Virus record (IMG/VR): IMGVR_UViG_3300005841_000036
Span: 4,398 to 68,397 of that record
DNA length: 64,000 nucleotides
Strand: one strand, 5' to 3'
Source of the DNA: a virus
In this document: positions 1,389-56,018 of the stretch, one piece after another
How the letters are laid out: each line of letters starts with the position of its first letter
Position numbering within the stretch: position 1 is the first letter of the stretch
Notes under the pieces: model-generated
What the model was told of the DNA's origin: nothing
What the model saw: the letters and a program-made list of their open reading frames with translations, nothing else
The model's database searches: none
Program-made: the position numbers and the translations under genes

Positions 1389-2485
1389 AACTTGCAATTC
1401 TCCAGCTTGCCGACCAGGGCCCCGCACTCTCGACCGCAGCCATGCTCCGCGCGGTCGGCTATGAGGTGGCGATCCCAAACGACGCGCTCCGCGACATGCT
1501 GCAGGCGATCGGCTGCGATACGGTCCTCTCCCCTCGAGGACTTCACGAAGGGATGGGCTATGACCCGCTCGACCTGCCCGAGGTGGGGATCGAGGCAATG
1601 GATACGTGCGACCTTTACCTCGACGTGAAGGGGCACCGCAACTGCCCCAAGATCTGGAAGGTCTGGCCGCGGCTCAAGAATCTGTCGATGTGGGTTCGGT
1701 TCAACGGCGGCAAGCCCGAACACGTCCGACGGCAGTCGAAAGACCAGTTCGGCAACACCTCGATCGAGGACTGCGGGGATGAGGTCAATCCGGGCCTGCC
1801 GATCCTCACGCCGAATATGTGGTATCGTGGCGACCCGAAAGCGTATGTCGCCTGGGTGCCGTTCGTCGGCTGGGGTGACTACTTCGATCGCCACGGGCGG
1901 ACCGTCGAGGGGTACCACAAATCGCCCGATGGGTTGATCTTCCGCGATCCGCAGCCGGGCGACTTGCTCAAGGGGGACGCTCCGGTTTGCCTGATTCACG
2001 GGGTCGAGGGCTGGGGATACTCCGGGCTGATCGAATGGGTCAGATACCACGGCGTGAAGTGCTACGGATCCCACGGGTCGCCCGATGGGCTTGTCCCTCA
2101 CTCGCTGGTCCCCAAGATGCTTTCCCGGGCCCGGTGCCTGGTCTCGCTGCGATCGAACGACTGCCCGGGCTATGCAATGTATGAGGCCGCGGCGGCGGCT
2201 TGCCCGATGATCGTACCGCGGCGGCTGATCCATCGCATGCAAATGGAGGACTGGTTGATCCCTAACGAGACGTGCCTTGTGTTCGACGGGATTGAGCCGG
2301 GCCGGATCGACATCGAGGCTTGCGCGGCCGAGATCAAGGAGGGACTCGATAGCCTTCTCGATCCTGGCGAGAATTCGCGGATCGGGTTCGCCTGCCGGGA
2401 AAAGCTCCGGTCGCTAATGTGGTCGGCGGACCGCGCCGAGGATGTGATGCTTTTTAAAATGTTCATGCAAAGGCACTTTTGGTAG
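1385..2485 (+). CDS. GT-B fold glycosyltransferase-like protein
   Basis: C-terminal LSRARCLVSLRSNDCPGYAMYEAAAAACPMIV resembles GT4 nucleotide-sugar binding segment; ATGA coupling with dam. Confidence 0.7.
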   Translation: MKLAILQLADQGPALSTAAMLRAVGYEVAIPNDALRDMLQAIGCDTVLSPRGLHEGMGYDPLDLPEVGIEAMDTCDLYLDVKGHRNCPKIWKVWPRLKNLSMWVRFNGGKPEHVRRQSKDQFGNTSIEDCGDEVNPGLPILTPNMWYRGDPKAYVAWVPFVGWGDYFDRHGRTVEGYHKSPDGLIFRDPQPGDLLKGDAPVCLIHGVEGWGYSGLIEWVRYHGVKCYGSHGSPDGLVPHSLVPKMLSRARCLVSLRSNDCPGYAMYEAAAAACPMIVPRRLIHRMQMEDWLIPNETCLVFDGIEPGRIDIEACAAEIKEGLDSLLDPGENSRIGFACREKLRSLMWSADRAEDVMLFKMFMQRHFW

Positions 2486-2494
2486 GAGAATGCG

Positions 2495-2710
2495 ATGCGG
2501 TTCCTGATTCTGGCTTGCTTGCTGGTCGGGTGCGCGAGCAAGCCCCCCATCCCCACCAGCGGCCAAAGGCTTACCTACACCGAGGAGCTCGACCTCGGGG
2601 CGGGCCCAAAAATCCGGATCATCAAGGATTCGGAGACTGGTCGCGAGTTCCTGATGGGGAGTCATAGCGGCGGCGTTTCAATCTGCGAGATCAAGCCGAA
2701 GGGCGAATAA
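2495..2710 (+). CDS. small lipoprotein
   Basis: MRFLILACLLVG-C lipobox; strong RBS. Confidence 0.7.
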   Translation: MRFLILACLLVGCASKPPIPTSGQRLTYTEELDLGAGPKIRIIKDSETGREFLMGSHSGGVSICEIKPKGE

Positions 2711-2720
2711 GGAGGATGCG

Positions 2721-3365
2721 ATGCAAGGAACGGATTTCGATACTCTCTTCCGGTCTCTCCCTGCCGACGGCTGGCTCTATGAGGATGAGGCCCGACTCCT
2801 CCTCGCCCACGCCCGGGACACCGATGGCCCGATTCTCGAGGTGGGAAGCTACTGCGGCCGGTCGACCGTGTTACTGGCTTCCCTCGGGCGCAGCGTCCAC
2901 TCGGTCGACCCGTTCGACGGGTTTCATTCCGACCTCACCGGCGACGAGATCCAGGAACGATTCTGGGGCAACCTGCAGGCCCGCGGGATCCGGAACGTGA
3001 TTCAGCATCGGATCCACGTCGAGCGCTGGCCGATCTTCGGCTGCGGGTTCGCCTTCCTCGATGGGGATCATTCCTTCGAGGGAACGCAACGGCAGATCGA
3101 CGCCGCGGTTCGATCGCTCATCTTGGGCCGCGGCGATCTGCTGGCCGTGCACGACTACGCCGAAGACGGCGGCGGGGCACTGGTCGCCAAGGCGGTCGAC
3201 GATGACAAGCGGATCGAGGTGATCGGCCGGGCAAGTCGGCTTGTGATCTGCCGAATGGATCGAGATCGGGCGATGACCGAGGGCCTCGCCCGGTGGGTCG
3301 AGGGCCGGCAGGAAAAAGGCGACTGGGTGTTTACTTCTTCTTCTCAAGAATGGGACGGCGCGTAA
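2721..3365 (+). CDS. class I SAM-dependent methyltransferase (Methyltransf_24-like)
   Basis: ILEVGSYCGRST, SVDPF, FAFLDGDHSFEG, VHDY motifs. Confidence 0.85.
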   Translation: MQGTDFDTLFRSLPADGWLYEDEARLLLAHARDTDGPILEVGSYCGRSTVLLASLGRSVHSVDPFDGFHSDLTGDEIQERFWGNLQARGIRNVIQHRIHVERWPIFGCGFAFLDGDHSFEGTQRQIDAAVRSLILGRGDLLAVHDYAEDGGGALVAKAVDDDKRIEVIGRASRLVICRMDRDRAMTEGLARWVEGRQEKGDWVFTSSSQEWDGA

Positions 3366-3387
3366 CTTGAAACCAAAGGAGGATGCG

Positions 3388-4386
3388 ATGCGTTCAATTG
3401 TGATCGGACTGGGTGAGGTCGGGCGGTCGCTGGCGAGCGTACTGGCCGAGGGGAAGCGGGAGGAGGTCTTTTCGCACGACAAGGTCGGCGGAACGATCGA
3501 GGCCGGCGAGCAGCGGCTGGCACTCATTGCGACCGAGAAGCCGGTCGGGGTGATCCATATCTGCTTTCCCTACTCGCCCGAGTTTGTCGACGAGGCTTGC
3601 AGGTATATCCGGCTGACGGACGCCCCGCTGGTGATCATCCACTCGACGGTCCCGGTCGGAACGACCAGGCGGATCCAGGAGCGGCACCACGGCGCAAACG
3701 TGGTCCATTCCCCGATTCATGGCCAGCATCCGCACCTCGCGCGAGGGATCCGGACGTTTTTGAAGTACGTCGGCGGAACGAACGAGGCCGCGGTCGAGCA
3801 GGCCTTGGGCTACTTCATGCGGCACGGGATCAAGGCTTACCCGGTGAGCTCGCCCGAGGCTAGCGAAGTGTCCAAGCTGCTTTGCACGCTGCAATATGGA
3901 TGGCAGATCGTGATCTGCAAAGAGATCGCCGCGATCTGCGAGCGCTACGGGGTGCCGTTCGACGAGGCCTATGCCGGTTGGAATCGGGAATATAACCGGG
4001 CCTATCAGGAACTCCACCCGACGGCGCCGGATGAGTTCAAAAGGTCGGTCGGGGTCGACGTTCGCCGGCCCATCCTCCACCCGACGCCCGGGCCGATCGG
4101 CGGGCATTGCGTGATCCCAAATGCGAACCTCCTCGAGGACTTTTGGCTGGCGGCGACGCTGATCGAGAGGAATCGGGATTACGCGGGCAGGAGCAGCCAA
4201 ACGCCAATCCCTGCAGGCCACTTCCGTTGTGACAACTGCAAGCGACTCTCCCCGCTAGGCGATGATGGCGCGGCTATTGCTGAGATGAAAACTAATTTCG
4301 GCAACCTGCCAATCGAAGATCGTGCGATGGTCTGTGACGAATGCTATGCAACCATGCGGCCAAACACCTCGGGGAAAAGCCAATGA
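3388..4386 (+). CDS. nucleotide-sugar (UDP-glucose/GDP-mannose family) dehydrogenase-like protein with C-terminal Zn finger
   Basis: VIGLGEVG Rossmann, HSTVPVGTT, HSP, EVSKL, IGGHCV; C-terminal CDNC...CDEC. Confidence 0.82.
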   Translation: MRSIVIGLGEVGRSLASVLAEGKREEVFSHDKVGGTIEAGEQRLALIATEKPVGVIHICFPYSPEFVDEACRYIRLTDAPLVIIHSTVPVGTTRRIQERHHGANVVHSPIHGQHPHLARGIRTFLKYVGGTNEAAVEQALGYFMRHGIKAYPVSSPEASEVSKLLCTLQYGWQIVICKEIAAICERYGVPFDEAYAGWNREYNRAYQELHPTAPDEFKRSVGVDVRRPILHPTPGPIGGHCVIPNANLLEDFWLAATLIERNRDYAGRSSQTPIPAGHFRCDNCKRLSPLGDDGAAIAEMKTNFGNLPIEDRAMVCDECYATMRPNTSGKSQ

Positions 4387-5336
4387 AAATCGGACTCATC
4401 GGCCGAGCCGACCTCTCGGGCCTCGGCTACATGACGCGGGATTTCTGCGACCACCTTCCGGTCGAGAAAGCCTTGATCGTCTCGCGCGAGGGGCGCGGCC
4501 CGAACTCCCTCGACCAAATCCTCGCCCGGCATCGCATGATGACGAGCAACACGTTCCGGCAAGAGGATATCGAATTCCTGTTTGACGGAATCGATGTGCT
4601 GGTCGGATTCGAGACGTTCTACCATCCGGACGTGATCCCCGAGGCAGTCGCCCGCGGGATCAAAGTGGCGATGTTCCCTATGTGGGAATGCTCGCCGCCC
4701 GAGGTCTGCGCGGCCGACTACCTGTTTTGCGTTACGGATCGCGAGCGGGCCCGCTTCCCCTATCGGGCAGATACGATCCGGGTTGACTGGCCGATGGAAC
4801 CCCCGCCCGGCTGGAAGCAACAGGCCAGGCAGCGACCGTTGCGAGTGGTCGCCTGCGCGGGATCCGGGGGGCTGCACGACCGGAACAACGTCGAAAGCCT
4901 CAAGGCGCTTCGACAGGCGGCCGACGCCGGTCGGGCGGATGGATGGACGTTCGATTTGCGGGAGTTTTCGACCGATCGCTCGAGGTGGGCGCAGTACGCC
5001 AATGCCGATCTGTTCGTGCACCTGCAGGCGTTCCACGGGCTATCCCTCCCGCTTCTCGAGGCCGCGGCGTGCGGCGTGCCTTGCGTGGTTCTCGACATCC
5101 CGGGCTTTCGTGAGGAATATACCTCGTCGTGCCGGGTGGGAGTTGGGGCGATGTTCGATCGCGAAATGATGGGCGAGCGGGTGACGTTCGCGAGGCCTGA
5201 CCCGTCCGGGCTGATCCGGACGATCAACCGCCTGGCGTATACCGTCCAGATTCCGCCGGCACCGCGGCCGGGGACCTGGGCAGAGTTCGTGGAGATCTGG
5301 ACCAAGCACGTCGGCCCTCTGGAGTCCGCACAATGA
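4383..5336 (+). CDS. glycosyltransferase (GT4-like)
   Basis: YANADLFVHLQAFHGLSLPLLEAAACGVPCVVLDIPG signature. Confidence 0.8.
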   Translation: MKIGLIGRADLSGLGYMTRDFCDHLPVEKALIVSREGRGPNSLDQILARHRMMTSNTFRQEDIEFLFDGIDVLVGFETFYHPDVIPEAVARGIKVAMFPMWECSPPEVCAADYLFCVTDRERARFPYRADTIRVDWPMEPPPGWKQQARQRPLRVVACAGSGGLHDRNNVESLKALRQAADAGRADGWTFDLREFSTDRSRWAQYANADLFVHLQAFHGLSLPLLEAAACGVPCVVLDIPGFREEYTSSCRVGVGAMFDREMMGERVTFARPDPSGLIRTINRLAYTVQIPPAPRPGTWAEFVEIWTKHVGPLESAQ

Positions 5337-6457
5337 GCGATCCGATCATCAACCAGAACGCCGCGCGGGTGATCCCGGTTTCCCGCCCATCGCTCGGCCC
5401 CCTCGAGGCGAATGCGGTGTCCGACACGGTCCGCAGTGGGTGGATATCCCAGGGTCCAAAGGTCGAGCAGTTCGAGAAGTTGTTTGCGGCCTCGCACGGC
5501 CGGCAATTCGGCGTCGCGTGCTGTTCGGGGACGTCGGCGCTGCAGCTCGCCCTCGCAACACTCCAGGCGACCAAAGATCTCGACCGAGACGACTCGGTCC
5601 TCTGCCCGACGCTGACGATGGTTGCGGTGCCGAATTCGATCCTATACGTCGACTGTGTTCCGGAGTTCGTCGACTCTTGCCGATTAGATGGGAATATGGA
5701 TTGCGACCCGAGGCGAGGAATGCCACTGGTGGCGATCGTCCCGCACCTCTACGGCGTTCCGGCGGCCGAGGCGATGCGACATCTACTCGCCCGCGGCGTT
5801 ACGGTGATCGAGGACTGCGCCGAGGTCCACTATGCAAGCACTGGCTCAGGGGCGCCGGTCGGTTCGCGCGGGCGCATGGCCACGTTTTCCTTCTACGCAA
5901 ATAAGATCATCACCACGGGCGAGGGGGGGATGGTCCTCACCGACAGCGAGCGCGACGCCGAGATTCTGCGATCGCTCCGGTCGCATGCGTTCACGCCGGG
6001 CAACCACTTTCATCACCAGGGCCTAGCCTACGGGATGAGGATGACCGACGTGCAGGCGGCGATCGGCCTCGAGCAGCACTGCCAGCGATCGGATTTCCTG
6101 CAAAAGCGGACCATACTAGCCAACACCTACAGGCAGGAAATTTCCGACGCGAAAATCGAACTCCCCTACAATCACTATGTCGACGGCGCGGTCTGGTGGG
6201 TCTATCCCATCCTGGTTCGCAACCAAGCCGACCGCGACGCGCTGCGGTACCACCTCGCCGAGCATGGAATCGAAACGCGCACCTACTTCCACCCGATGCA
6301 CCTGCAACCTCACTTGCGGCGTTTTGCATATCGCCCGTATCCTATCGCTGAGGACCTTGCGAGCCGGGGGCTCTATCTCCCGCTCTATCCCAGCATGACG
6401 ATCGAGGATGCAAAGTATGTCGCCGCCGCCGTCGACTCATTCTGGTGCAAAGACTGA
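5333..6457 (+). CDS. DegT/DnrJ/EryC1/StrS PLP-dependent sugar aminotransferase (perosamine synthetase-like)
   Basis: SGWISQGPKVEQFE, SGTSAL, IEDCAE, FSFYANKIITTGEGG (PLP lysine), GIETR, LYLP. Confidence 0.93.
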   Translation: MSDPIINQNAARVIPVSRPSLGPLEANAVSDTVRSGWISQGPKVEQFEKLFAASHGRQFGVACCSGTSALQLALATLQATKDLDRDDSVLCPTLTMVAVPNSILYVDCVPEFVDSCRLDGNMDCDPRRGMPLVAIVPHLYGVPAAEAMRHLLARGVTVIEDCAEVHYASTGSGAPVGSRGRMATFSFYANKIITTGEGGMVLTDSERDAEILRSLRSHAFTPGNHFHHQGLAYGMRMTDVQAAIGLEQHCQRSDFLQKRTILANTYRQEISDAKIELPYNHYVDGAVWWVYPILVRNQADRDALRYHLAEHGIETRTYFHPMHLQPHLRRFAYRPYPIAEDLASRGLYLPLYPSMTIEDAKYVAAAVDSFWCKD

Positions 6458-7247
6458 CCAGGACACCAGGCTGCAAGAGTTTCCCCCCTTCACGCGCGGG
6501 GCGGCGGTTTACGACCGATTCCACCGGTCGAAAAACTATCTGGCCGAGGCCAGGATGGTCTCGCACCACCTTTGCGACGGTGGCCGCCCCCCTGGCTCGA
6601 CCCATGTCCTCGAGTTCGGCGCCGGGACTGGAGCGATGACGAAGGCCCTCCGCGGCCTGGGGCACCGCGTGACAGCGACCGAGCCGTCGGCCGACATGCG
6701 TCGCGAGATCGGCAGCGCGGGGGCGATCAATCTCGAGATCTCGGGCAAGCGGCCGGCGGGGCAGATGCTCGACCCCCTCGAGACTGAATACGACGGGGCG
6801 GTCGCCCACTTCACCGTTGTCTCTTACGCGTGCCTGACCCTCGACCGCCTTTTTGAGGCCGCCGGATTCGTCCGGTCGAAGCTGCGGCCGGGGGCGGCCT
6901 GGGTGTTCGACGTGATCAATTACGCCGCGGCGGCCTCGAGCCTGCGCGAGTACGAACACCAAAACGCCAGCGAGGGCCGCAAGGAAGGCGATCACCGGGT
7001 GGTAAAAAAGTGGTTCGACGTCTCAACCGGGGTGATCACGTACTCGATCGTCTATGACATCGGCGGCCAGCGATGGCGCGAGATCCACCTGCAGCGAGCA
7101 TTCACCCCCGCGGAGATCTCGCACGTACTGCACGCGAGCAGGTTTGACGTGCGGCTGCAGTTCGATCCGGCCGAGCGGGATCCCGGCGAAGATAACCGCC
7201 TGACTCGATTTTCCTGGACGAATCAAGTCGTCGCGCGGGCGGTCTAG
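6408..7247 (+). CDS. class I SAM-dependent methyltransferase
   Basis: YDRF..KNY..E, VLEFGAGTG, LRPGAAWVFD, EIHLQRAFTPAEI; resembles sugar N/O-methyltransferases. Confidence 0.82.
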   Translation: MQSMSPPPSTHSGAKTDQDTRLQEFPPFTRGAAVYDRFHRSKNYLAEARMVSHHLCDGGRPPGSTHVLEFGAGTGAMTKALRGLGHRVTATEPSADMRREIGSAGAINLEISGKRPAGQMLDPLETEYDGAVAHFTVVSYACLTLDRLFEAAGFVRSKLRPGAAWVFDVINYAAAASSLREYEHQNASEGRKEGDHRVVKKWFDVSTGVITYSIVYDIGGQRWREIHLQRAFTPAEISHVLHASRFDVRLQFDPAERDPGEDNRLTRFSWTNQVVARAV

Positions 7248-7264
7248 TTCCCTCGAGGTGTCGC

Positions 7265-8749
7265 ATGCCGATTTCGTTCGCTGGCTTCGATCTCGCCCTC
7301 GAGACCGAGGAAATCCAGGAAGATTTAAACGAGTTCCTGCCGACGGCGGAAACGGCAATTCTGAGCGACTTCCTCGGAGCGGACCGCACGAATCGAAACG
7401 AATCTCGAAATTCAAACGCTCCCCTCGCGCCAGGCGTTGCGCGGCCGAACTATCCGCCCCCTCCCCCGCTGCGGATCAACTCCCTCTATTGGCCAACGGG
7501 CGCAACGCGGTGGGGTCGATTCCTTGGCCTGGCGGACACCGAAACAAAGGACAAGATTGTCGCCGCGGTGGGTGGGGTGTCCTCGGCGCCGATAGTGAAA
7601 GATCTGGTCTTGGTCGATGAGTCTGTATCGCCGGCGGTGGTCCTCACTGCGAAAATGTACCTTCTTCCGCCGCGGCGACTTACTCAAGTCGAGACCGGCA
7701 ATGGATCCGGCACGCAACCTCCTCACCTCTGGTTGATCCCGCTGGTCGATGTTCGGTACCTCTGGCAATTCAACAATACAGGAGCCCTGACGATCGCGGC
7801 GGCCGATACCTGGTCCAGTTTCTTCAACTCACTGGGTTCGCGGCTGGGACTGACGATCTCGACCGGGACTATCGCCGCGGCCTATCTGAACCCTGATCCA
7901 TACGAATGCTCGAGGGCCTACGAATCGACCGCGGCTCTGGCGGATGCCGGTGCCCATTCAGTCGGCCGGCGAATGGTAGTCAACCTCGACGGGACCACGG
8001 TTCGGGCGATGGACTTCGCCTATGCACTCACCACGTTAAACGCGAACATCGCGAAAAACTGGGCGCAGATCATGGGCGGCGATTTCGACGCCGGGAAGTG
8101 GGCGACTCAGGCGACGGTCGAGCTCATCTGCCCGAAGTACGTCGCCAACGTGCAAAGCTGTGGATCCTCAAAGCTCTCGGGGACCGTTGGCAGTGGATAC
8201 GCGTCGACCGTTCGCACAATCCATACGACATGCGCCAGCATGCGATCGACGTTCGGGGGAAGCGAGTCGAATACGACCGACCTGCAGGCGCTGGCCGATA
8301 AGATCGCGGCCGATCTGCTGCTTTCCATGAAGTTCTATGATCGGACGTTTGCCGGCTTGCTCGACTGGTCGCCGTGTTCCTGGGACGACCATATCGAATG
8401 GACAATTGGCCGATGGCATCCAAGCGGCGTCGAGATGGCGCAAACGCGGGTGCAGTCCTCACCCTATAATTTCGGCGTCGACGAGATGCTCCACCAGGTC
8501 GCAACGCGGGTCTTTCCCGTTGGGAACTACATCGCCAAAACAAACGCCGCGATATCTGCACTGTCAGGGTCGACGCCTGGGTCCGGCGCAATCTCGATCT
8601 ATGAGACCAACCTCAGCACGGGCGACCTCGATGATACGGGGATCGATGGTCTCGCGTTCAACTCCACGGCGACCGCCTCGGGGAGCGGCGTTTGGGTGCA
8701 ACTCAAGCACGACGGGTGCAGGTTGTGGCTTGATACCGAGGATTGCTAA
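7265..8749 (+). CDS. putative virion tail/baseplate protein
   Basis: 494 aa, Thr/Gly/Ser-rich C-terminus, coupled to downstream tail-like gene; no catalytic motif. Confidence 0.55.
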   Translation: MPISFAGFDLALETEEIQEDLNEFLPTAETAILSDFLGADRTNRNESRNSNAPLAPGVARPNYPPPPPLRINSLYWPTGATRWGRFLGLADTETKDKIVAAVGGVSSAPIVKDLVLVDESVSPAVVLTAKMYLLPPRRLTQVETGNGSGTQPPHLWLIPLVDVRYLWQFNNTGALTIAAADTWSSFFNSLGSRLGLTISTGTIAAAYLNPDPYECSRAYESTAALADAGAHSVGRRMVVNLDGTTVRAMDFAYALTTLNANIAKNWAQIMGGDFDAGKWATQATVELICPKYVANVQSCGSSKLSGTVGSGYASTVRTIHTTCASMRSTFGGSESNTTDLQALADKIAADLLLSMKFYDRTFAGLLDWSPCSWDDHIEWTIGRWHPSGVEMAQTRVQSSPYNFGVDEMLHQVATRVFPVGNYIAKTNAAISALSGSTPGSGAISIYETNLSTGDLDDTGIDGLAFNSTATASGSGVWVQLKHDGCRLWLDTEDC

Positions 8750-12924: not shown

Positions 12925-12991
12925 GGGTCGCATTCCTTGAACGAGGGGAGAAAGGGGCGAGGGGCAACGAGCCCCCCACCCGACGCACTGA

Positions 12992-25724: not shown

Positions 25725-25729
25725 CCGAA

Positions 25730-45579: not shown

Positions 45580-45585
45580 CGAATC

Positions 45586-47874: not shown

Positions 47875-47919
47875 CGTCGCGTTTCTCTTGCGTTTCGCGT
47901 TTCACTTGGAGGATCAGCT

Positions 47920-48174
47920 ATGGCTGTCGTTTTGAACTTTCTCCCGAATGCTCCGCACTGCCCGCGCGGCCCCGAGACGGGTTTGCATGCCGTCAACTTC
48001 AACAACGGTACGGCGATGCGGGATACCGACGGTGTGATCTGGATCCGGCACGACGACATAACCGGCCAGCCCCCGGTGTGGGTGAGCGTGCGGACGGGCC
48101 AGTACGCCGAGCTAGGCGACGGGCATTTGGTCGAGGACGGCGAACAGATCACGATTGTCGCCGGCACCAACTAG
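47920..48174 (+). CDS. hypothetical protein
   Basis: GGAGG RBS, 84 aa. Confidence 0.55.
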   Translation: MAVVLNFLPNAPHCPRGPETGLHAVNFNNGTAMRDTDGVIWIRHDDITGQPPVWVSVRTGQYAELGDGHLVEDGEQITIVAGTN

Positions 48175-48188
48175 CTCGAGGCCGAACG

Positions 48189-48944: not shown

Positions 48945-48947
48945 AAA

Positions 48948-49502
48948 ATGCCCCTCCCCCTCGATCCCAACGGCAAGGAAATGACACCCGAGGCCGCGCT
49001 GCGATCTCAGCTTGCCGACCGCGATACACTGATCGCCGACCTGCAGAAGAAACTCGGGATCCGCGAACAGTCGACCGCCGAGAAGCTCGCCGCGATCGAG
49101 AATCTCTCGCACGCCGACTTGAAGGCGAGCAAGGCCGACCTGGTCGAGCGGGCCGCGCAGCTGCCGGCCGGCGACCTCGCCGCAAGGTATGTCCAATCGC
49201 GCACCGACGCCAAGTTGCGCGACGAACGCATGGGCGAGATGGGAAAGCAGATCTCGAGCCTGCAGGCCCAGGTCGAGGACCAGGCAAAGCAGATCGAGCA
49301 GCTGCAGGACGATATCACTAAGAAGGATTCGACGATCACCACGCACGAGGGGACGATCGCGATTCAACTGCAGTCGGCCCAGGATGCGGCCAAAGCGCAC
49401 GCCGAGGCCCTCGAGGAATCGCGTGCCAAGGTCGCCGAACTGACCAAAACCCTCGAGGCGATCGAATCGGCCGCCCAGGACCGCAACACACTCGAGGGCT
49501 AA
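48948..49502 (+). CDS. coiled-coil protein
   Basis: Continuous heptad pattern. Confidence 0.65.
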   Translation: MPLPLDPNGKEMTPEAALRSQLADRDTLIADLQKKLGIREQSTAEKLAAIENLSHADLKASKADLVERAAQLPAGDLAARYVQSRTDAKLRDERMGEMGKQISSLQAQVEDQAKQIEQLQDDITKKDSTITTHEGTIAIQLQSAQDAAKAHAEALEESRAKVAELTKTLEAIESAAQDRNTLEG

Positions 49503-49505
49503 TCG

Positions 49506-50705
49506 ATGTTTCCGATGGGCGACTTTCCGGTCGGGGCAACGGTCCCGTTCCCGTTCGATACCTACGATAGCAACGGCGGATCCGTAACGATCACCGGCCT
49601 TGCTGTTACGGACATCGAGATTTACAAGGACGGCTCGACCACGCAGCGGGCGAGCGACAACGGCTATGTCCTTCTCGATACCGACGGGATCGATTTCGAC
49701 GGCGCGACTGGCCTGCACGGGTTTTCCGTCGACTTCTCGGACAACTCCGACGCCGGATTCTACGCTGCGGGCCATTGGTACTGGCTGAACGTCAACGCGA
49801 TCACTTGCGACGGTCAGACGGTTCGCTTTACGTACTTTTTCACGATCGGAATGCTGCTGCGGCCGGCAACCGCGGGTCGGACTGTGGTTGTAGATTCGGC
49901 TGGCTTGATCGATGCCACCGCGGTCAAGATAGGCCCAACGGGAGCCGCTACGGCTCAGACCGCGGCCGACGTGGGCAAGCTAGGTCAGCTGCTTGCACCG
50001 ATTGATAGCGGCACGGCGCAGGCGGGCGGCGGGAACACGATCACGCTGCGTGCGGGTGCAAGTGCTACAAACGACTACTACGCTGGTTGCCTGATTTTCA
50101 TAGTATCCGGTACTGGTGCAGGTGGGCGCCCTGGCCTCTGCACGTCTTACAACGGCTCTACCAAATCGGCGACCGTCTCGCCGGGATGGAGTTACACCGT
50201 GGATAACACCAGCGTTTACGCCGTGTTTCCACTCGGCCAAGCAATCCTCGGCCTCTTACCACAGTCAAGCGGTACGTTCAACCTTGGGAATTTGTTGACG
50301 AATGTTGCTCAGCTATTCGGATCGACTACTGCCGCAAGCAATGCAAAACTATTTTTTGACGGTACGGGCTACGCAGGCACAAATAATGTAATCCCGACGG
50401 TGACGAATCTCACCAACGCCCCAACGGCAGGCGATCTAACTGCCACAATGAAGGCTTCGGTGACTGCTGCCGTTCCAACCGCCAATGCCAACGCCGATGC
50501 ATTGCTAGATCGCGCAAGCGGGGTTGAAACCGGCTGGACGGTTCGCCAGATCCTACGCATCATCGCGGCATGGTTCGGCGGCAAGCGATCGGGCCAACCT
50601 CTCGCCCCCGTTATCCGCGATATCAACGATACAAAGAATCGCATCAGTGCCAGCTTGGACGCTAACGGCAACACCACAGGCTCAGTAACGATTGACGTGT
50701 CCTAA
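49506..50705 (+). CDS. putative virion structural protein
   Basis: SGTAQAGGGNTITL..ASATNDYY, T/G/A-rich, RDINDTKNRISASLDANGN tail. Confidence 0.65.
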   Translation: MFPMGDFPVGATVPFPFDTYDSNGGSVTITGLAVTDIEIYKDGSTTQRASDNGYVLLDTDGIDFDGATGLHGFSVDFSDNSDAGFYAAGHWYWLNVNAITCDGQTVRFTYFFTIGMLLRPATAGRTVVVDSAGLIDATAVKIGPTGAATAQTAADVGKLGQLLAPIDSGTAQAGGGNTITLRAGASATNDYYAGCLIFIVSGTGAGGRPGLCTSYNGSTKSATVSPGWSYTVDNTSVYAVFPLGQAILGLLPQSSGTFNLGNLLTNVAQLFGSTTAASNAKLFFDGTGYAGTNNVIPTVTNLTNAPTAGDLTATMKASVTAAVPTANANADALLDRASGVETGWTVRQILRIIAAWFGGKRSGQPLAPVIRDINDTKNRISASLDANGNTTGSVTIDVS

Positions 50706-50935
50706 TGTCATGGGCAGGAAACTGGCTTGGAAATTGGGTGGGTAACTGGTTGGGCGCAACCTCTGCAGCGCCAACGCCGCCGGCCTCGACGCCCGGGGGC
50801 GGCGATCGCCCTGGCTTGGCCCGGTGGGGCCGAGGGAGAGACCGCCGCGCGGCGCTGCAGTTCGCTCTCGACCGACGCAATGCAATCCTGGCTGCGGCGC
50901 TCGCTGCGGCCTCTGACGATGACGCGGGGTGGTAG
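50705..50935 (+). CDS. small protein with WxGN repeats
   Basis: MSWAGNWLGNWVGNWLG; TAATG coupling. Confidence 0.55.
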   Translation: MSWAGNWLGNWVGNWLGATSAAPTPPASTPGGGDRPGLARWGRGRDRRAALQFALDRRNAILAAALAAASDDDAGW

Positions 50936-50936
50936 G

Positions 50937-51173
50937 ATGCTTGATCCAGATTCCAAGAATTGGATCCTCGAGGAAATCGGTCTGCGGCTCGATGCGCTGG
51001 GCGACTATGGGAGCATATCTTTCGACATCACAATCGAGCATCGTCGGGCGACCAGGCTGGTCAAACGCGACGCAATCGAGTCGATCAAAGCACCAAAATC
51101 CAGCGCATCGCGAGACCAGGACGGCAGCGAAACTTCCACTAAAGGATTGACGCGCCGAGGAAATTCCGCCTAA
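50937..51173 (+). CDS. small protein, possibly DUF2292-like
   Basis: LGDYGSISFDITIEH. Confidence 0.45.
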   Translation: MLDPDSKNWILEEIGLRLDALGDYGSISFDITIEHRRATRLVKRDAIESIKAPKSSASRDQDGSETSTKGLTRRGNSA

Positions 51174-51176
51174 GAT
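51147..51176 (+). promoter_or_regulatory. sigma70-like promoter candidate
   Basis: TTGACG-N18-TAAGAT upstream of head genes. Confidence 0.45.
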
Positions 51177-51227
51177 CAAAAACATCAGGGGACACCAAGC
51201 CCCGCGCAGGTACTGGGAACAACCCTC

Positions 51228-51263
51228 GCCCGCTTCGCTCACTCGAGCGACGCGGGCTTTTTT
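51228..51263 (+). terminator. intrinsic terminator-like hairpin
   Basis: GCCCGC(T)TCGCTC/GAGCGA(C)GCGGGC stem followed by T6. Confidence 0.6.
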
Positions 51264-51276
51264 CGTTTATGGCTCC

Positions 51277-52809
51277 ATGACGATCCCCAAGCCAAAATCC
51301 GGCGAGTCTCAGGTGCAGTTTGCGGAGCGCTGCCACGTCGCGCTTCGCGACTCCCATCCTGACACCGACGAGAGAAACGCGATTTGCTTCTCTGCCTGGC
51401 GGGATTCCGGCAAGGACAAGCTCGAGAAGCTCGCCGACCGGACGTTCGACCAGGACCGATACGAGAAGGTCCCCGACGTCGCTGTCTTCTGCGAACACAA
51501 GAAGCAAAAGCGGCTCTCGGACGGTTCGGTGGTCGAGGAAGTTTACGACAAGGCCGCCCTCGAGAAGATCGCCGCGCGGTGCAATTCGCGCATCTCTGAC
51601 ACAAAGAATTTTGCCCGGCTGGTCGAGGGGCACACGCCTTCCCCGGAAGAGTCCGCGGCCGGCGCTTCCCAGCCCGAGGTCCTCGGATTCGAGGGGCCCT
51701 ATTGGATCGGGATGGGCGGGAACGATGATCCCCGGTGGTGTATCTACGCGAACGAGTACTGGCTGAAAAGCGAGGCCCACAAGCGGCCGAAGCTGCCCGG
51801 CCGGTCGGTCGAGTTGTGGATGCACGACGACATGGGCGAGCGGTTTTTCGACCCGATCGCGGCCCTCGGCGCCGAAACGCCGCGGCTCGATCTCCCGATG
51901 AAGTACTCGCAAACCGAAGACGGCCGCGCCGTGCAGGTCGCCCGATATTCCGCTTTCGCCGGCGAGGGGAACGTTTACGCCCCCGCCTTCAACGCGCCCG
52001 CCAAAAAGGAGCGATACGAAATGATGAGCCCCGAAGAAATCAACCAGCTTGCCCAGGCAATGGCCGCTCCGATTGGTCAAGCCGTCGCTCAGGCGGTGAT
52101 CCAGGCCCTCAGCGAAGCCCCCGCCGACCAGGCCGGCGCCGACATGGGCGGGGCGGAAGGTGATCAAGGCGCAGGCGGTGTTCCCGGCGGGCCGCCGCCG
52201 GCCGCCACTCCCCCGGGTCCGAACGACCACAACGAAGCCGACGAGGTCGACGACGTCGACGAAGAAGACGGCGACGTGAACGGCATCGACAAGAAAGAGG
52301 AAAAGGATATGCCCGACAAGATGAGCAAAAAGCTCGCCGACCTCGAGTTGAAGGTCGCGAAGTACGAGCGCCAGCAGGGCGAAGTCGAGGCCCTCAAGCA
52401 GACGGTGGCCAAGATCAGCCGGGACAAAATCACGGTCGAGCGCCACTCGAAGCTGGCCGATCTGGCCCGGGAATATGCCTTCCGCGACGAGATCGACGCC
52501 GCCGGGAAGCTGGTTAAGACCGGCCTCGAGAAGGCGGTCGAGCGTTGTTCCAAGATGAGCGATCAGGACTTCCACGAGTACTGCCTCGACGTGGTCCAGC
52601 ACTACCAGAAGCTGGACAACCCCCGCCCCGCGCTGCGGACGTTCAACGTCGACGGCGAACACGGCGGGCCGGACGACGCCAAGGCCAAGGCCGCCGCGGT
52701 CGAAGCTCGCGAGCAGTGCGAGAAGTTCCGCCGGGAGGGCAAGGCCTACAAGTTCGGCGACGTGCTGAACGACGTCCGAAAGGCCAAGGGGCTCTCGGCG
52801 ATCGCCTAA
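51277..52809 (+). CDS. prohead protease/scaffold protein
   Basis: VEGHT, PGRSVEL, IAALGAETPRLDL (Mu protease-like), acidic linker and coiled coil; precedes capsid genes. Confidence 0.75.
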   Translation: MTIPKPKSGESQVQFAERCHVALRDSHPDTDERNAICFSAWRDSGKDKLEKLADRTFDQDRYEKVPDVAVFCEHKKQKRLSDGSVVEEVYDKAALEKIAARCNSRISDTKNFARLVEGHTPSPEESAAGASQPEVLGFEGPYWIGMGGNDDPRWCIYANEYWLKSEAHKRPKLPGRSVELWMHDDMGERFFDPIAALGAETPRLDLPMKYSQTEDGRAVQVARYSAFAGEGNVYAPAFNAPAKKERYEMMSPEEINQLAQAMAAPIGQAVAQAVIQALSEAPADQAGADMGGAEGDQGAGGVPGGPPPAATPPGPNDHNEADEVDDVDEEDGDVNGIDKKEEKDMPDKMSKKLADLELKVAKYERQQGEVEALKQTVAKISRDKITVERHSKLADLAREYAFRDEIDAAGKLVKTGLEKAVERCSKMSDQDFHEYCLDVVQHYQKLDNPRPALRTFNVDGEHGGPDDAKAKAAAVEAREQCEKFRREGKAYKFGDVLNDVRKAKGLSAIA

Positions 52810-52901
52810 GCCCCCGATCGCTCGCCTCGATCGTCTCGAGTCGGCCAACCATCACAACCACGCCCCGCGGGGCATCACGCTAGCAACCGGAGAATCGAAA
52901 C

Positions 52902-53315
52902 ATGGCGGGTCACAACCCTAACTGGATGGCGGCCGGCAACATCCTTCCGAGTGTGTTCATCACGCCGTACACCTCGGGCGATAATCGCGTGATTCAGGCG
53001 ACCCTCAATTCGATGGTTGTCGGCATCTCGCACCCGGATACCCGGCAGGCTCCGATCCCCTCGGCGTCGACCTATCACGCGATTTCGGGTGATCCGGTCG
53101 CCGCCTACGGGCCCGGCGAGCAGGGCTTGCTGTCCTATGGTGGCTCGATCACTCGAGGCGCTCGCATCAAGAGCGACGCCAACGGTGCCGGGATCACGAT
53201 CGGCACGACCGGCATCGCGCAGAACCAGGGGGCGATCGCCCTCGAGTCTGGTTCGGCTGCCGAGCTCCACAACGTCTTGGTCCAGCCTCAGCTGATGCCG
53301 GCCTCGGCGTCCTAA
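52902..53315 (+). CDS. capsid decoration/cement protein (DUF2190-like)
   Basis: GGSITRGARIKSDANGAG, AIALESG. Confidence 0.75.
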   Translation: MAGHNPNWMAAGNILPSVFITPYTSGDNRVIQATLNSMVVGISHPDTRQAPIPSASTYHAISGDPVAAYGPGEQGLLSYGGSITRGARIKSDANGAGITIGTTGIAQNQGAIALESGSAAELHNVLVQPQLMPASAS

Positions 53316-53404
53316 CTGGGGCCGCTGCGGCTTTCAACGTTTCTTAGCACTCAACACGTCCCGCCGGTGGTCGGCGGCCGGCAACGTAACAGGAGATTCT
53401 GAAC

Positions 53405-54475
53405 ATGGCCGCAGGCACCCCGGTCTATCCCGGTGAATACAACGTATATATCCCCAATCACGAGTCGACTCAGGGGATGATCGTCGATTTCAGCCGGAAT
53501 CCGAAAGACTTCTCGCTGAACAAGTGGATCAAGCTGATCCCGGTCAAGACCGAAAACGGGTATTACGCCCGCTTCGGTCGAGACGGCGGCCTGCCCGAAG
53601 AGGCCGCGCGGATCACCGATACCGCGCTGCCGGGCGCCGTCTGGCATGACGGCAACGATGCCCCGGACGGGAACAAGCTCAAGGAGCTTTTCCAGTTCGT
53701 TGAGCATCACTGTATCCGCTATGCCACCCCCTGGGTTTTGGGGGACAAGACCGTCGCGCAGGCTTCGTGGTCGATCAAGGATCAGTATGCCCGGATCGCG
53801 GCCCAGCTGGCGATGACTCGCCGAGCGCAGTTGTGCATCTCGGCGGCGACGACGACCGGCAACTATCCCACGGGCCACTTCTCGGCGGTGAGCTCGATCA
53901 CCGGCGTCACCGGCAAATGGGACGTCTCGACCTCGGCGCGAATGGATATCCGCCGGTCGCTGGATTACGGGGCGGAAATCATCCGTCTGGATACCCTGGG
54001 CCTGGTCAAGCGCAAGGATTTGCGTTTGGTGATCAGCCCGGGCGAAGCGATGGCGATGAGCCGGTCGCAAGAGGTGATCGACATCCTCAAGCAGCAGGCG
54101 AACTCGATCAAGATCATCGAAGGGACCTGGGAGCAGAAGAATTTCCAGTTCCCGGCCGAGCTCTACGGGGTCGAGATCGTGATCGAGGACACCGTCAAGG
54201 CGACCAACGCCAAGGGCGCGACTCGAGCGGTATCGAACATCCTGGCCGATACGACCGCGATCCTTTGCTCGCGTCCGGAAGGCCTCGAGGGGACCGACGC
54301 CGCGGCGCCGAACTTCTCGACGATCACTATGTTCGCCTACGACCAAGAGGAAATGGTGGTCGAGGAAATGCACGACTCGCGACACAAGCGGGTCGAGGGC
54401 CGGGTGATCGACACCGTTGACGTCCAGGTCACCGCGGGCGCCGCGGGATTCCTGTTCACCTCGACCACGGGCTAA
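53405..54475 (+). CDS. major capsid protein
   Basis: 356 aa after scaffold and decoration genes; LVISP, ELYGVEIVIE HK97-like pattern; AGFLFT end. Confidence 0.8.
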   Translation: MAAGTPVYPGEYNVYIPNHESTQGMIVDFSRNPKDFSLNKWIKLIPVKTENGYYARFGRDGGLPEEAARITDTALPGAVWHDGNDAPDGNKLKELFQFVEHHCIRYATPWVLGDKTVAQASWSIKDQYARIAAQLAMTRRAQLCISAATTTGNYPTGHFSAVSSITGVTGKWDVSTSARMDIRRSLDYGAEIIRLDTLGLVKRKDLRLVISPGEAMAMSRSQEVIDILKQQANSIKIIEGTWEQKNFQFPAELYGVEIVIEDTVKATNAKGATRAVSNILADTTAILCSRPEGLEGTDAAAPNFSTITMFAYDQEEMVVEEMHDSRHKRVEGRVIDTVDVQVTAGAAGFLFTSTTG

Positions 54476-54597
54476 GGAGAGGTCGGGGTCCGGCTGCGGC
54501 TTTACGCGACCGCAGTCGCCTTTACAGCGGGGCGAACTACCGTTGGCGCATCCTCCGGTCAGTTCGCTCCGCTGGTTTCACATCGGGAGGGTTTGCC

Positions 54598-55104
54598 ATG
54601 TCCTACGCCACGCCGACGCAGTTCCGAGAACGGATCGACGTTCGCATGCTGGGGGACCTGGCCGCCGACGATGGGACGCAAGTTTCCTCGAGCGGCGTCC
54701 TTTCCGACGGGAACATTCAGGCCGCGCTGAACGACGGATCGGGCGACATCGAAGCCGCCTTGCGCATGGCCCGACGCTACACCGTAGCGCAAATGGCGGC
54801 CCTCGCCGCGAACACGAATTTCAAGCTGGTGCGGATCAATGTCGATCTCGCCGTCGGCTACCTGGTCGACCGCCGGCTCTACGGCAAGGCCGATGAGACG
54901 TTGAAGCGGATCATGGACCGAGGCCGGGAAGAGTTGAAGGCGCTGGCCGATGGCCACTTGGTCCTCGAGGTCGACGACGCGCTCGATGCCGGCCTGCCGA
55001 GTGTGACGGGCCCGACGACCGCGCAGCTCGACAATCTGAACATGATTTCCCGCACGGCAGGCATGCGTTTTTATCCGCAACAGTTCCTGCCCGGCAATCG
55101 ATAA
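54598..55104 (+). CDS. head-tail adaptor (Mu gp36/DUF1320-like)
   Basis: MSYAT, ALNDGSGDIEAAL..RY, DLAVGYL, LKALADG. Confidence 0.8.
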   Translation: MSYATPTQFRERIDVRMLGDLAADDGTQVSSSGVLSDGNIQAALNDGSGDIEAALRMARRYTVAQMAALAANTNFKLVRINVDLAVGYLVDRRLYGKADETLKRIMDRGREELKALADGHLVLEVDDALDAGLPSVTGPTTAQLDNLNMISRTAGMRFYPQQFLPGNR

Positions 55105-55113
55105 GGATCCACC

Positions 55114-55596
55114 ATGTCGGTTCAACCTCGATATGCCGGCGCCGCATTGTGCAAGGTGGACACCGGCGGCGGCCTCTCGAATCTCGGTTACACCGAGGAC
55201 GGCGCGCAGGTGACGCCGAACGCCTATTGGGTCGACGTGCCGGGCGACGAGAACGGCGGCCCCGAGGGGCCCCCTATCGACGTTCAATACCTGGGCGAGA
55301 CGGTCGATATCCGGCTGGTGATGACGTCCTGGGAAACGACCGTTGCCGATGCGATCGCCGCGCGGCTGGCCGGCGCCACGGCAGGCACGCCTGGCACGCC
55401 GGGCACGATGATGTTTAACGAATCGAAAACGATGCGGCTTGTGCTGCTGACGACGAACACCCCTTTCAACTTTCCGCGGGTGATCTTCCGCGATCCCATC
55501 GAGATCAACAAAGGGACGAAGTTTTCCCGCCTGGTCCTGATCGGGCGAGCCTACAAGAACGGTTCGGGTGTCCTGTACAACGCGACCACCAGTTAG
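55114..55596 (+). CDS. tail tube protein (putative)
   Basis: LGYTEDGAQVT, DENGG..PIDVQYLGE. Confidence 0.65.
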   Translation: MSVQPRYAGAALCKVDTGGGLSNLGYTEDGAQVTPNAYWVDVPGDENGGPEGPPIDVQYLGETVDIRLVMTSWETTVADAIAARLAGATAGTPGTPGTMMFNESKTMRLVLLTTNTPFNFPRVIFRDPIEINKGTKFSRLVLIGRAYKNGSGVLYNATTS

Positions 55597-55657
55597 GGGT
55601 GGACTAGTTTTCCAGTCTCCGGGCTAAATTTAGTCCACCAGCTAAGAGGATCTCGAA

Positions 55658-56008
55658 ATGTCGCAATTCCAAGTCAATCTCGCCCGGGCCCTCGCCTCGA
55701 CCGCGGAATCAAAGGGCATCGTGCAGACGGCGACCGATTTCGCCTCGGCGATCGAAAGCCGGATCGGCAGCGGGCAAGAAATGGTCGGGATCCACGCTGC
55801 GATCCTGGCGGTGGTCGGGATGGCTGCCAGATCGGCTAAGCCGATGCCGATCTCGCAAGAGGCCGCCGCGGAGTTGCTGGTCAATCACGCCGCGCTGCAG
55901 GGCAAGGTCGAGGCCCTCGAGGCAGCGCTAGCCGCTCAGGCAAAACCCGCGGAGCCGGTTGCGTTGCCGGCCCCCACCCCGCCCGCGCAGGGCGATTCTG
56001 TTTCCTAG
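55658..56008 (+). CDS. hypothetical protein
   Basis: GAGG RBS, 116 aa. Confidence 0.55.
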   Translation: MSQFQVNLARALASTAESKGIVQTATDFASAIESRIGSGQEMVGIHAAILAVVGMAARSAKPMPISQEAAAELLVNHAALQGKVEALEAALAAQAKPAEPVALPAPTPPAQGDSVS

Positions 56009-56018
56009 AGGATGCGCT

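Follow-up and report, generated by a model that had tools for sequence, protein, structure and literature searches.

A start-associated sequence tag in a csrA-bearing viral genome and a candidate antisense hairpin behind the capsid gene

The window analysed here is a stretch of 64,000 nucleotides of DNA from an uncultured phage (positions 4,398 to 68,397 of IMG/VR record IMGVR_UViG_3300005841_000036), in which 87 genes were called by a simple in-house caller that chose starts using the Shine-Dalgarno (SD) core and not the ATGCG tail described below. In 13 of these genes the motif RGRATGC(G) lies 0–6 nt ahead of the ATG, in all 13 cases in sense orientation. The tag joins an SD core, either GGAG or GAGG, to the constant tail AUGCG(CC); GGA lies within ten of the tags, and the other three hold GGAGAA or GGAA. 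An earlier note, made from the sequence, had described a near-identical motif just before a list of starts, and every site on that list is present as described. Starts 510, 6417 and 21924, where the tag occurs minus its final G, are additional to the list. The tag copies and the features discussed with them are the following.

497–503, plus strand: tag AGGATGC (within cAGAGGATGC), 6 nt before ATG 510 of a D12-class DNA methyltransferase gene (Pfam)
2485–2494, plus strand: tag GGAGAATGCG, abutting ATG 2495 of a gene for a 71-aa protein
2711–2720, plus strand: tag GGAGGATGCG, abutting ATG 2721 of a gene for a methyltransferase-domain protein
3378–3387, plus strand: tag GGAGGATGCG, abutting ATG 3388 of a gene whose product weakly resembles UDP-glucose dehydrogenase
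6405–6411, plus strand: tag AGGATGC (cGAGGATGCaaagt), 5 nt before ATG 6417 of a gene for a methyltransferase-domain protein
12661–12668, minus strand: weaker variant GGGGTGCG, before ATG 12655
12929–12936, minus strand: tag GGAATGCG (cAAGGAATGCGaccc; listed earlier as AAGGAATGCG), 4 nt before ATG 12924
13236–13243, minus strand: weaker variant GGAGTGCG, before ATG 13231
13255–13262, minus strand: full copy GGGATGCG, 12 nt upstream of the weaker variant that precedes ATG 13231
13519–13529, plus strand: cis tag complement GTCGCATTCTC, pairing with GAGAATGCGAC (13562–13572)
13561–13570, plus strand: tag GGAGAATGCG, 2 nt before ATG 13573 of the gene that opens the rightward operon beyond the divergent control region
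18532–18539, plus strand: tag GGGATGCG (ttCAGGGATGCGcc; listed earlier as CAGGGATGCG), 2 nt before ATG 18542
19925–20098, plus strand: csrA homologue, 57 aa (Pfam PF02599, E 9e-18)
21915–21921, plus strand: tag AGGATGC (cGAGGATGCca), 2 nt before ATG 21924 of a gene for an ERCC4-domain protein
26078–26087, plus strand: tag GGAGGATGCG, 2 nt before ATG 26090
35644–35651, plus strand: tag AGGATGCG (cCAGAGGATGCGcc), 2 nt before ATG 35654
39817–39824, plus strand: tag AGGATGCG (tCAGAGGATGCGcaa), 3 nt before ATG 39828 of the gene immediately upstream of the large terminase gene
54525–54574, plus strand: very stable predicted hairpin, in a non-coding gap of 122 nt behind the major capsid gene (53405–54475)
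56009–56016, plus strand: tag AGGATGCG (cTAGAGGATGCGct), 2 nt before ATG 56019 in the structural module

The tagged genes belong to unrelated families and are spread over 56 kb, among sugar and methylase genes, the control region and the replication, packaging and structural modules; the capsid and portal genes carry no tag. An identical 9-mer, GAGGATGCG, is common to six of the sites, among them those before 35654, 39828 and 56019. Anything between 0 and 6 nt separates tag and ATG, yet the tag itself is constant, which suits a binding unit more than an optimised spacer. Across the whole window RGRATGCG occurs 27 times, compared with 19.3 ± 4.0 times in shuffled sequences; 4 of 100 shuffles reach 27, and there is therefore no window-wide excess. 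Ten of the 27 copies directly precede called starts, and the excess is positional. In the −20 to −1 windows of the 87 starts, AGGATGC was counted nine times (0.17 expected), GGATGCG seven times (0.2 expected) and GAGGAT 12 times (0.87 expected). Where a ribosome site holds GGA (n = 54), TGC follows in ten cases (about one expected) and TGCG in seven; outside ribosome sites TGC follows at a genome-wide rate of 1.8% and TGCG at one of 0.6% (binomial p 5e-8 for either). A caller-independent test gave the same direction: 15 of 65 copies of RGRATGC are followed, within 0–7 nt, by an ATG or GTG opening at least 60 codons, compared with 7.6% when every position is counted (p 8e-5) and 8.2% when RGRA precedes any three bases but TGC (p 2e-4). 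The earlier observation is borne out, and the tag is very probably a selected element of translation starts. No close relative of the virus was found in viral contigs, where large terminase identity is at most 53%; in metagenome contigs it is 53% over short segments and 44% over longer matches, and the phage collection gave no match for this protein. The tag is absent from a distant csrA-bearing relative (G001), and the other fetched loci hold at most two start-linked copies per locus.

The hairpin in the gap behind the capsid gene has a predicted folding energy of −35.1 kcal/mol (z −7.0), and none of 200 shuffled sequences folds as well. In its apical loop region, on the sense strand and outside coding sequence, lies GGCGCATCCTCC (54545–54556), 12 nt complementary to the tag consensus GGAGGATGCGCC. 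Contiguous complementarity between loop and start region is longest at 35654 (12 nt) and amounts to 10 nt at each of 26090, 39828, 56019, 18542, 2721 and 3388; at starts 510, 6417 and 21924 the match is only 8 nt or fewer. The first seven starts would form duplexes of −21 to −25 kcal/mol with the loop, against a median of −12.4 over the 87 starts, a ranking that is not independent evidence because the shared tag produces it. Two G-C pairs are predicted inside the loop; they would reduce its exposure, and part of the target pairing would be lost. The leader of gene 13573 holds a second sense-strand complement. In the predicted fold of this leader (−27.2 kcal/mol, z −2.1, with 7 of 200 shuffles folding as well), an 11-nt cis pairing closes the ribosome site of the gene in a 13-bp stem. 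The cis complement has U where the capsid-side loop has C, matching the A-variant tag opposite; this pairing of A-variant tag with U-variant complement is a within-genome hint of covariation between regulator and target. The statistics on complements and hairpins were computed after the hairpin had been noticed. By our own arithmetic about 1.3 sense-strand 8-mer complements are expected by chance in 64 kb, and only the length, the non-coding place and the loop position of the capsid-side complement are unusual. When the non-coding DNA was resampled 4000 times, 254 trials yielded one or more sense-strand 11-mer complements; the phage has two that are independent, and the chance of at least two is about 0.002 (Poisson arithmetic from the resampling rate, in a post hoc test). 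The 12-nt tag complement in the predicted loop of the capsid-side hairpin appears to be new here.

That the start-associated tag is read by an antisense RNA is the best reading of these predicted folds, and we hold it tentatively. Displayed in the apical loop behind the capsid gene, GGCGCAUCCUCC would become abundant together with the late capsid message; the loop could pair with the GGAUGCG-type ribosome sites (10–12 contiguous bp at seven sites) and would either hide them from ribosomes or mark them for cleavage. In the leader of 13573, GUCGCAUUCUC would close the gene's own GAAUGCG-type site in cis, and by its complementarity it might also pair with the sites of 2495 and 12924. On this reading the hairpin RNAs would be made and meet their targets, and the pairing would alter translation. 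The case rests on a single locus and one cis hairpin, because there is only one trans copy. A hairpin displaying the complement of the tag fits the tag better than the phage CsrA does. The earlier note had allowed for another RNA-binding factor as the reader; our tests favour RNA over protein in this role. Two further observations count against an antisense RNA: the tagged genes fit no single module or time class, and in G001 the tag is missing and no long gap follows the capsid gene.

It is possible, if rather doubtful, that the tag has no trans reader at all. It might represent a preferred flavour of ribosome site that was copied, or carried by recombination, from one gene junction to the next, or it might act in cis only; for example, its out-of-frame AUG 1 nt past the SD core, or its G+C-rich spacer, might set the level of translation. 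The tag does always lie over a working SD core at normal spacing, and several copies are identical over 12–16 nt, which fits copying: 2721 and 3388 share AAGGAGGATGCGATGC, and the 13-mer GAGGATGCAAAGT is present before 6417 and at 47861. G001 carries a different tag, AGGAAC(C/A)CAGA, in three copies on adjacent genes, and both the protein and the RNA readers proposed for the present tag are only candidates. However, the tagged genes are of unrelated families and lie scattered over 56 kb, and the variable spacing implies that the tail is no fixed optimal spacer. The most highly expressed genes, those for capsid and portal, lack the tag, and the two sense-strand non-coding complements are left unexplained.

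In the view of the earlier note, phage CsrA would recognise the tag through its GGA, which overlaps the SD sequence, and would either block translation of these genes or set its timing. The csrA gene itself, which the note had placed at 19925–20098, is a clear homologue, located in the linker of a split RecD2-like helicase gene. Residues 1–53 of its product align with E. coli and Pseudomonas CsrA/RsmE (structures 1y00, 2jpp and 7yr6), and the protein keeps L2, L4, R6 and an arginine aligned with R44 of E. coli CsrA, which we take to be residues of the RNA-binding face. Among the 58 of 87 proteins scanned against Pfam, it is the sole recognisable RNA-binding regulator. The RsmE/CsrA consensus includes GGANG, with which the GGAUG of the tag agrees; before 18542, UCAGGGAUGC matches nine of ten consensus positions, the only start to come close, and the leader of 13231 holds two copies of the tag 12 nt apart. 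Even so, a CsrA regulon appears unlikely. CsrA dimer operators comprise two or more GGA sites 10–63 nt apart, and tagged leaders show no excess of second GGA sites (0.85 per leader versus 1.03 in the other genes, p 0.69); the genome rate of GGA is 1.18 per 66 nt, and 4 of 13 tagged leaders have none. Minimum-energy folding of 15 leaders that have the tag or a weaker variant does not place GGA in hairpin loops, which is weak evidence because CsrA can induce such folds. The CsrA recognition sequence is A/UCANGGANGU/A, and the UGCG(CC) of the tag falls outside it, so that an invariant GCG(CC) would lie beyond the known CsrA contacts. CsrA-family operators are usually degenerate, whereas six sites here share one 9-mer. 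The tag was found in none of 32 other csrA-bearing viral loci, nor in G001, and non-canonical ribosome-site tags are no commoner among csrA loci (2 of 30) than among loci matched by terminase (3 of 26). Flagellin mRNA is the classic CsrA target in Bacillus, and GGATGC is present in none of 30 Planctomycetota flagellin leaders. Phage-encoded csrA/RsmA genes are described as common in the available part of one report (PMC8450108), which, with the 33 viral loci in which we encountered csrA, speaks for the regulon; the same part proposes host functions such as CRISPR-Cas as targets of phage RsmA, which argues against it. The regulon interpretation thus survives in part: a start-linked tag on the coding strand and a csrA homologue are there, but CsrA as its reader is not supported, and neither is a role of the tag in timing early versus late genes, since tagged genes are scattered over all modules.

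Another sequence-specific protein might read the tag, either a RegA-like repressor or a RegB-like ribosome-site ribonuclease. In bacteriophage T4, RegA is a translational repressor of many early ribosome sites, and RegB is a nuclease that cleaves early ribosome sites at GGAG. The tag's location, strand and constant sequence would suit a binding or cutting site, and a candidate could be among the 29 of 87 unscanned proteins or the scanned ones, most of which are assigned to no family. This explanation is improbable, and the 58 scanned proteins include no family with a known RNA-binding or ribonuclease role besides CsrA.

The earlier note had also held that ordinary SD pairing does not explain the ATGCG part, and this is what we observe. 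The 16S 3′ end is near-universal; the canonical form GGATCACCTCCTTTCT is present in 29 of 30 Planctomycetota (the probable host phylum), and its complement beyond GGAGG is TGATCC, not ATGCG. CGCATCC is found in 0 of 29 16S sequences, and the tail brings no gain in anti-SD duplex energy (mean −8.1 kcal/mol at tagged starts, −8.3 at other starts). The note's call for a comparison with host starts is taken up with 20 genome samples from the inferred host phylum, Planctomycetota, in which RGRATGCG precedes none of 307 gene starts and RGRATGC four, whereas 13 of the 87 phage starts carry the tag. The tag might in principle be just a stronger ribosome site, through longer pairing with an atypical 3′ end of the host 16S rRNA or with a different rRNA segment. 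That explanation is close to refuted and highly improbable, even though the SD core is part of the tag and the host may be another than presumed.

Several known systems invite comparison. Operators of the CsrA type overlap the SD sequence in glgC, hcnA and others. As in the CsrA/RsmA/RsmE operators, the ribosome site is overlaid by a GGA core, the GGAUG of the tag agrees with GGANG and a cognate csrA is present in the same genome; unlike them, it shows no paired second sites and no GGA-loop hairpins, its invariant GCG(CC) tail is not a known CsrA target, and the other csrA-bearing phage loci examined lack it. With T4 RegA and RegB it would share a single phage factor acting on ribosome sites that have a short motif in common; the motif is different, and no homologue occurs among the 58 scanned proteins. 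Antisense RNAs that cover ribosome sites include the c4 RNA of P1 and P7, which acts on icd-ant, and the sar RNA of P22, and RNAIII-type regulators of Staphylococcus have C-rich hairpin loops. The capsid-side hairpin resembles these RNAs in its short CCUCC-like loop complementary to the SD region of its targets. It differs in that c4 and sar RNAs each have one target, compared with 7–10 tag-sharing genes here, and in that the candidate is a 3′ hairpin of the capsid message rather than a separate small RNA gene.

A close parallel is found in the start-associated sequences (SAS) of cluster K mycobacteriophages, described by Pope et al. 2011 (PMC3203893), whose role is still termed unknown (PMC11373665; PMC12699233). 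According to the available part of Pope et al., SAS is a short asymmetric repeat with 11–19 copies per genome (13 here), located a few bases before mostly ATG starts in one orientation. As here, it combines an SD core with conserved positions incapable of 16S pairing, and precedes genes of unrelated families. SAS is also rare in hosts and other phages; for the present tag, RGRATGCG was seen at 0 of 307 starts in Planctomycetota, the inferred host phylum. The same part of that paper mentions a lone reversed SAS site and gives it no role. In mycobacteriophage Anaya, 16 forward SAS copies are accompanied by one reversed copy between gp96 and gp97, which, like the capsid-side complement, is away from a start and in a hairpin loop; the loop is 10 nt long, and the hairpin has −26.7 kcal/mol (z −2.95, with 1 of 200 shuffles folding as well). 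Pixie, also of cluster K, has 17 SAS copies and no reversed copy within 25000–61147, and a reversed hairpin copy is therefore no general SAS rule. The differences are equally clear. The consensus, as given in the available part of Pope et al., is GGGATAGGAGCCC and here (A/G)GAGGATGCG(CC), with the extra conserved part lying only 3′ of the SD core here; SAS is confined to the non-structural arm, again in that part of the paper, whereas the present tag occurs in all modules, including packaging at 39828 and structure at 56019. A subset of SAS copies has an extended inverted repeat (ESAS) upstream; neither this nor any other shared upstream element was found here, and the host phylum is probably different. 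SAS copies are retained at the same genes in related phages, and the tag is missing from G001, the one partial relative. Because sequence, module spread and upstream repeats differ, the tag is best regarded as an analogue of SAS and not as a member of its family.

The observation of a start-linked tag, RGRATGC(G), in which a Shine-Dalgarno (SD) core is followed by an ATGCG tail, is confirmed: all the sites named in the earlier note are present as written, and GGATGC without the final G precedes three more starts (510, 6417, and 21924; starts are named by the coordinate of the ATG). Enrichment of the motif holds for its position before starts, which stands out, and not for its whole-window count, which is unremarkable at 27 copies of RGRATGCG versus 19.3 in shuffles. 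Ten of these 27 copies lie 0–6 nt before a called ATG, as do 13 copies of RGRATGC in total. Within the 20 nt preceding starts, no 7-mer is more enriched than AGGATGC (9 occurrences versus 0.17 expected), which exceeds every canonical SD word. Once the GGATG sites are removed, T follows GGA at background frequency, which indicates a discrete tag rather than a general base preference. Ribosome sites holding GGA continue with TGC in 10/54 cases and with TGCG in 7/54, compared to genome-wide rates of 1.8% and 0.6% (p 5e-8), and a test independent of our own start calls gave 15/65 versus 7.6–8.2% (p about 1e-4). Around the tag, no shared longer context was seen by eye over 110 nt and no k-mer was enriched in −60..−11, making a promoter role unlikely. 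The tag occurs in two sub-types:

Before 35654, 39828, and 56019, plus a similar form at 18542: tag sub-type 1, (C/T)AGAGGATGCGC
Before 2495, 2721, 3388, 13573, and 26090: tag sub-type 2, GGAG(G/A)ATGCG(A)

The window, covering bases 4398–68397 of the 68,397-base virus record at 62% G+C, has genes identified with PHROGs as those of the large terminase, portal, and major capsid protein, as well as genes for several methyltransferases and for a primase-like and a RecT-like protein. Its 87 genes were called by our own caller, with codon log-odds trained on long ORFs and non-overlapping ORFs taken greedily; starts were chosen by coding score, start codon, and canonical SD core, the ATGCG tail not being used. 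Genes lie on the + strand nearly throughout, a short leftward block occupying 10839–13231. No tRNA genes were found in the window, and no Rfam family reached its gathering score there. One functional cluster is listed here:

510–10149: sugar-modification/methylation gene cluster, with a D12-class DNA methyltransferase, two glycosyltransferase-like proteins, a DegT-family aminotransferase (Pfam E 4e-78), and two SAM-methyltransferase-like proteins

This cluster contains five of the 13 tagged starts. Two copies of the 13-mer GAGGATGCAAAGT are present in the window: the one at 6405–6417 is the ribosome site of 6417, and the one at 47861–47873 lies in the last bases of the portal gene, some 50 nt upstream of the start 47920, for which a separate GGAGGATC site exists. 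A 365-nt gap (25725–26089) that separates the primase-like gene from the tagged gene 26090 has 40% G+C, versus 62% for the genome, and is rich in the short repeats TGTAAC/GTTACA and GTAGCGC/GCGCTAC; this region may be an origin of replication or an operator. The 12-mers AGGCCCTCGAGG and CGAGGCCCTCGA each have five + strand copies (26380–26393, 40057–40068, 47064–47076, 49403–49416, and 55909–55922), which at four of the five places lie in called + strand genes and thus probably encode a repeated peptide motif.

When all copies on both strands were listed, a minus-strand copy of GGAGGATGCG was found in the gap of 122 nt that follows the capsid gene. Two stretches of the sense strand are complementary to the tag:

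54545–54556, sense strand: GGCGCATCCTCC, complement in the apical region of a predicted hairpin (the capsid hairpin)
13519–13529, sense strand: GTCGCATTCTC, second complement, predicted to pair with the 13573 ribosome site in a 13-bp stem

The capsid hairpin has a predicted energy of −35.1 kcal/mol (z −7.0), with 0/200 shuffles as good. GGAGGATGCGCC, the complement of GGCGCATCCTCC, closely resembles the consensus of both tag sub-types, and the loop is complementary to seven start regions over 10–12 contiguous bases. The second complement carries T at the position of a C in the capsid loop and matches the A-variant tags (2495, 12924, and 13573). Upon resampling of non-coding DNA, at least one such 11-mer appeared in 6.4% of trials and at least one 10-mer in 19%, in a test made after the fact; two 11-mer complements are present, and the chance of two or more is about 0.002 by our own, likewise post hoc, arithmetic. 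A terminator scan of 45000–64000 gave totals that did not exceed those of shuffles and missed the capsid hairpin, the loop of which is longer than the scan allows. Tentatively, the leading candidate reader of the tag is an antisense RNA, with the capsid 3′ hairpin acting in trans and the leader complement in cis. In a more speculative extension of this reading, the capsid message would terminate in the hairpin, whose counterpart in the cluster K mycobacteriophage Anaya lies in the gp96–gp97 gap; through pairing of the loop with all tagged ribosome sites, a single transcript would govern the translation of genes dispersed over the genome. That the tag instead has no trans reader and stems from copying or from tuning in cis is somewhat less probable than an antisense reader.

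The earlier note had proposed a candidate translational regulon of the phage CsrA or another RNA-binding factor. The 57-aa ORF at 19925–20098 is a CsrA (Pfam E 9e-18) that aligns from one end to the other with CsrA/RsmE proteins of solved structure, carries a three-residue insertion, and keeps the arginine aligned with R44 of E. coli CsrA, a residue with a functional role. The tests run on second GGA sites, leader folds, and other csrA loci nevertheless do not favor CsrA, and it is unlikely that this protein reads the tag. Second GGA sites are not in excess in tagged leaders, nor is GGA presented in loops of their folds. The invariant GCG(CC) of the tag falls outside the known CsrA/RsmE consensus, to which the 18542 site provides the only good fit. 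CsrA relatives are encoded by 33 viral contigs, 32 of them at least 8 kb long; the tag is absent from all 32, and GGATG is found at 0–1 ribosome sites per locus save one (L036, 4/40). Flagellin mRNA is an ancestral CsrA target, and GGATGC occurs in none of 30 Planctomycetota flagellin leaders, where the sites are of the CA(A/C)GGAGGA type. Odd ribosome-site words were seen in 2/30 csrA-bearing loci (the viral loci L048 and L049) versus 3/26 terminase-matched loci, and a general association of csrA with tagged ribosome sites among phages was rejected. In L048 and L049, a leader of roughly 25 nt (containing CTTACATAGGAGA) is conserved and precedes 8–9 genes in L048 450–6900; it is not a tag of the RGRATGC kind and resembles promoters of single-subunit phage RNA polymerases. 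A search for a CsrB-like GGA-rich sponge was likewise negative, with no non-coding gap standing out except 14023–14155 (7 sense-strand GGA versus 2.4 expected), the leader of a LuxR-type regulator gene (14156–14491; GerE domain, E 1e-12). Phage RsmA/CsrA proteins have been proposed to act on host targets (PMC8450108).

The distant csrA-bearing viral relative G001, one of the 33 contigs above, also speaks against CsrA. It is a true relative with a complete genome of 62,651 bases (50% G+C) and about 20 proteins in common with this phage at 24–46% identity, and it has csrA and lacks the tag. In the window, csrA sits within a RecD2-like helicase gene split in two (19006–21405): residues 1–303 of the 19006–20061 product align with residues 1–340, and residues 2–432 of the 20095–21405 product with residues 362–808, of a single 820-aa G001 helicase. 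The N-terminal helicase ORF extends 137 nt into csrA in a different frame, and the stop codon of csrA shares bases with the ATG that follows (ATGA); the csrA of G001 occupies another place in the module that holds the helicase. G001 has a small tag of its own, AGGAAC(C/A)CAGA, 1–3 nt before three neighboring early genes, csrA among them (L051 1804–3090; starts 1817, 2028, and 3091). Nor is another protein or a nuclease a likely reader of the tag.

The claim that SD pairing does not account for the ATGCG tail was upheld: the 16S 3′ end is GGATCACCTCCTTTCT in 29/30 Planctomycetota genomes, so that the mRNA complement after GGAGG is TGATCC and not ATGCG. No conserved CGCATCC was found elsewhere in the 16S rRNA in 29 of these genes, and tagged starts do not differ from untagged ones in anti-SD duplex energy. 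A Planctomycetota host is only a lead, suggested by one CsrA match with this phylum as its named source and by the closest named relatives of the DegT-type aminotransferase, two matches from Pirellulales at 50–52%; when genome contigs were scanned with the aminotransferase, all matches were at ≤35% and came from mixed phyla. In 20-kb samples from 20 genomes of this putative host phylum, RGRATGCG precedes 0/307 called starts and RGRATGC 4/307, compared to 13/87 in the phage, and every other locus compared has at most two start-linked copies. Pairing with rRNA and chance are, even jointly, most improbable. As to close relatives, neither DNA nor a 510-aa structural protein gave a match in the phage collection, and the primase had no relative among viral contigs. 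Relatives of the large terminase reach at most 53% identity in viral contigs (17 loci) and metagenome contigs (63 loci), all metagenome matches longer than about 160 residues being ≤44%; 15/401 Planctomycetota genomes gave terminase matches, none >49%.

This phage offers two concrete candidate readers, a hairpin loop with the exact complement of the tag and its own CsrA. If the tag is read by RNA, a dozen scattered genes would have their translation level determined by a single abundant late message; were CsrA the reader, phage CsrA genes would gain a target within the phage itself. With neither reader, the tag would still be useful in annotation, as it helps start calling in this genome, and it illustrates the degree to which ribosome sites can be peculiar to one phage.

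A comparable element is known from cluster K mycobacteriophages, in which 11–19 copies of GGGATAGGAGCCC, the start-associated sequences (SAS), lie 3–7 bp before starts and conserve positions that include some unable to pair with 16S rRNA (PMC3203893). Known since 2011, SAS were still said to have an unknown role in papers of 2024 and 2025 (PMC11373665, PMC12699233). The 2011 paper (PMC3203893) also describes, for four K1 phages, one opposite-orientation copy each with no link to a gene start. In Anaya, the one reversed copy (59870–59882, + strand) lies between gp96 and gp97 in the 10-nt loop of a predicted hairpin (59845–59905, equal to 10845–10905 of locus L237; z −2.95). Pixie (K3) has 17 forward copies and none reversed in 25000–61147, and so the reversed copy is not universal. 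Speculatively, SAS-type elements may be the target half of an RNA–RNA switch, with one reversed tag copy in the loop of a stable hairpin; if true, this would provide a mechanism for an element unexplained since 2011 and a new kind of phage regulon. The tag and SAS are the same kind of element, but because they differ in sequence and distribution, the tag is an analogue of SAS and not a family member. As this phage is unrelated to cluster K, its host probably belonging to another phylum than theirs, elements of this kind are not confined to a single phage cluster.
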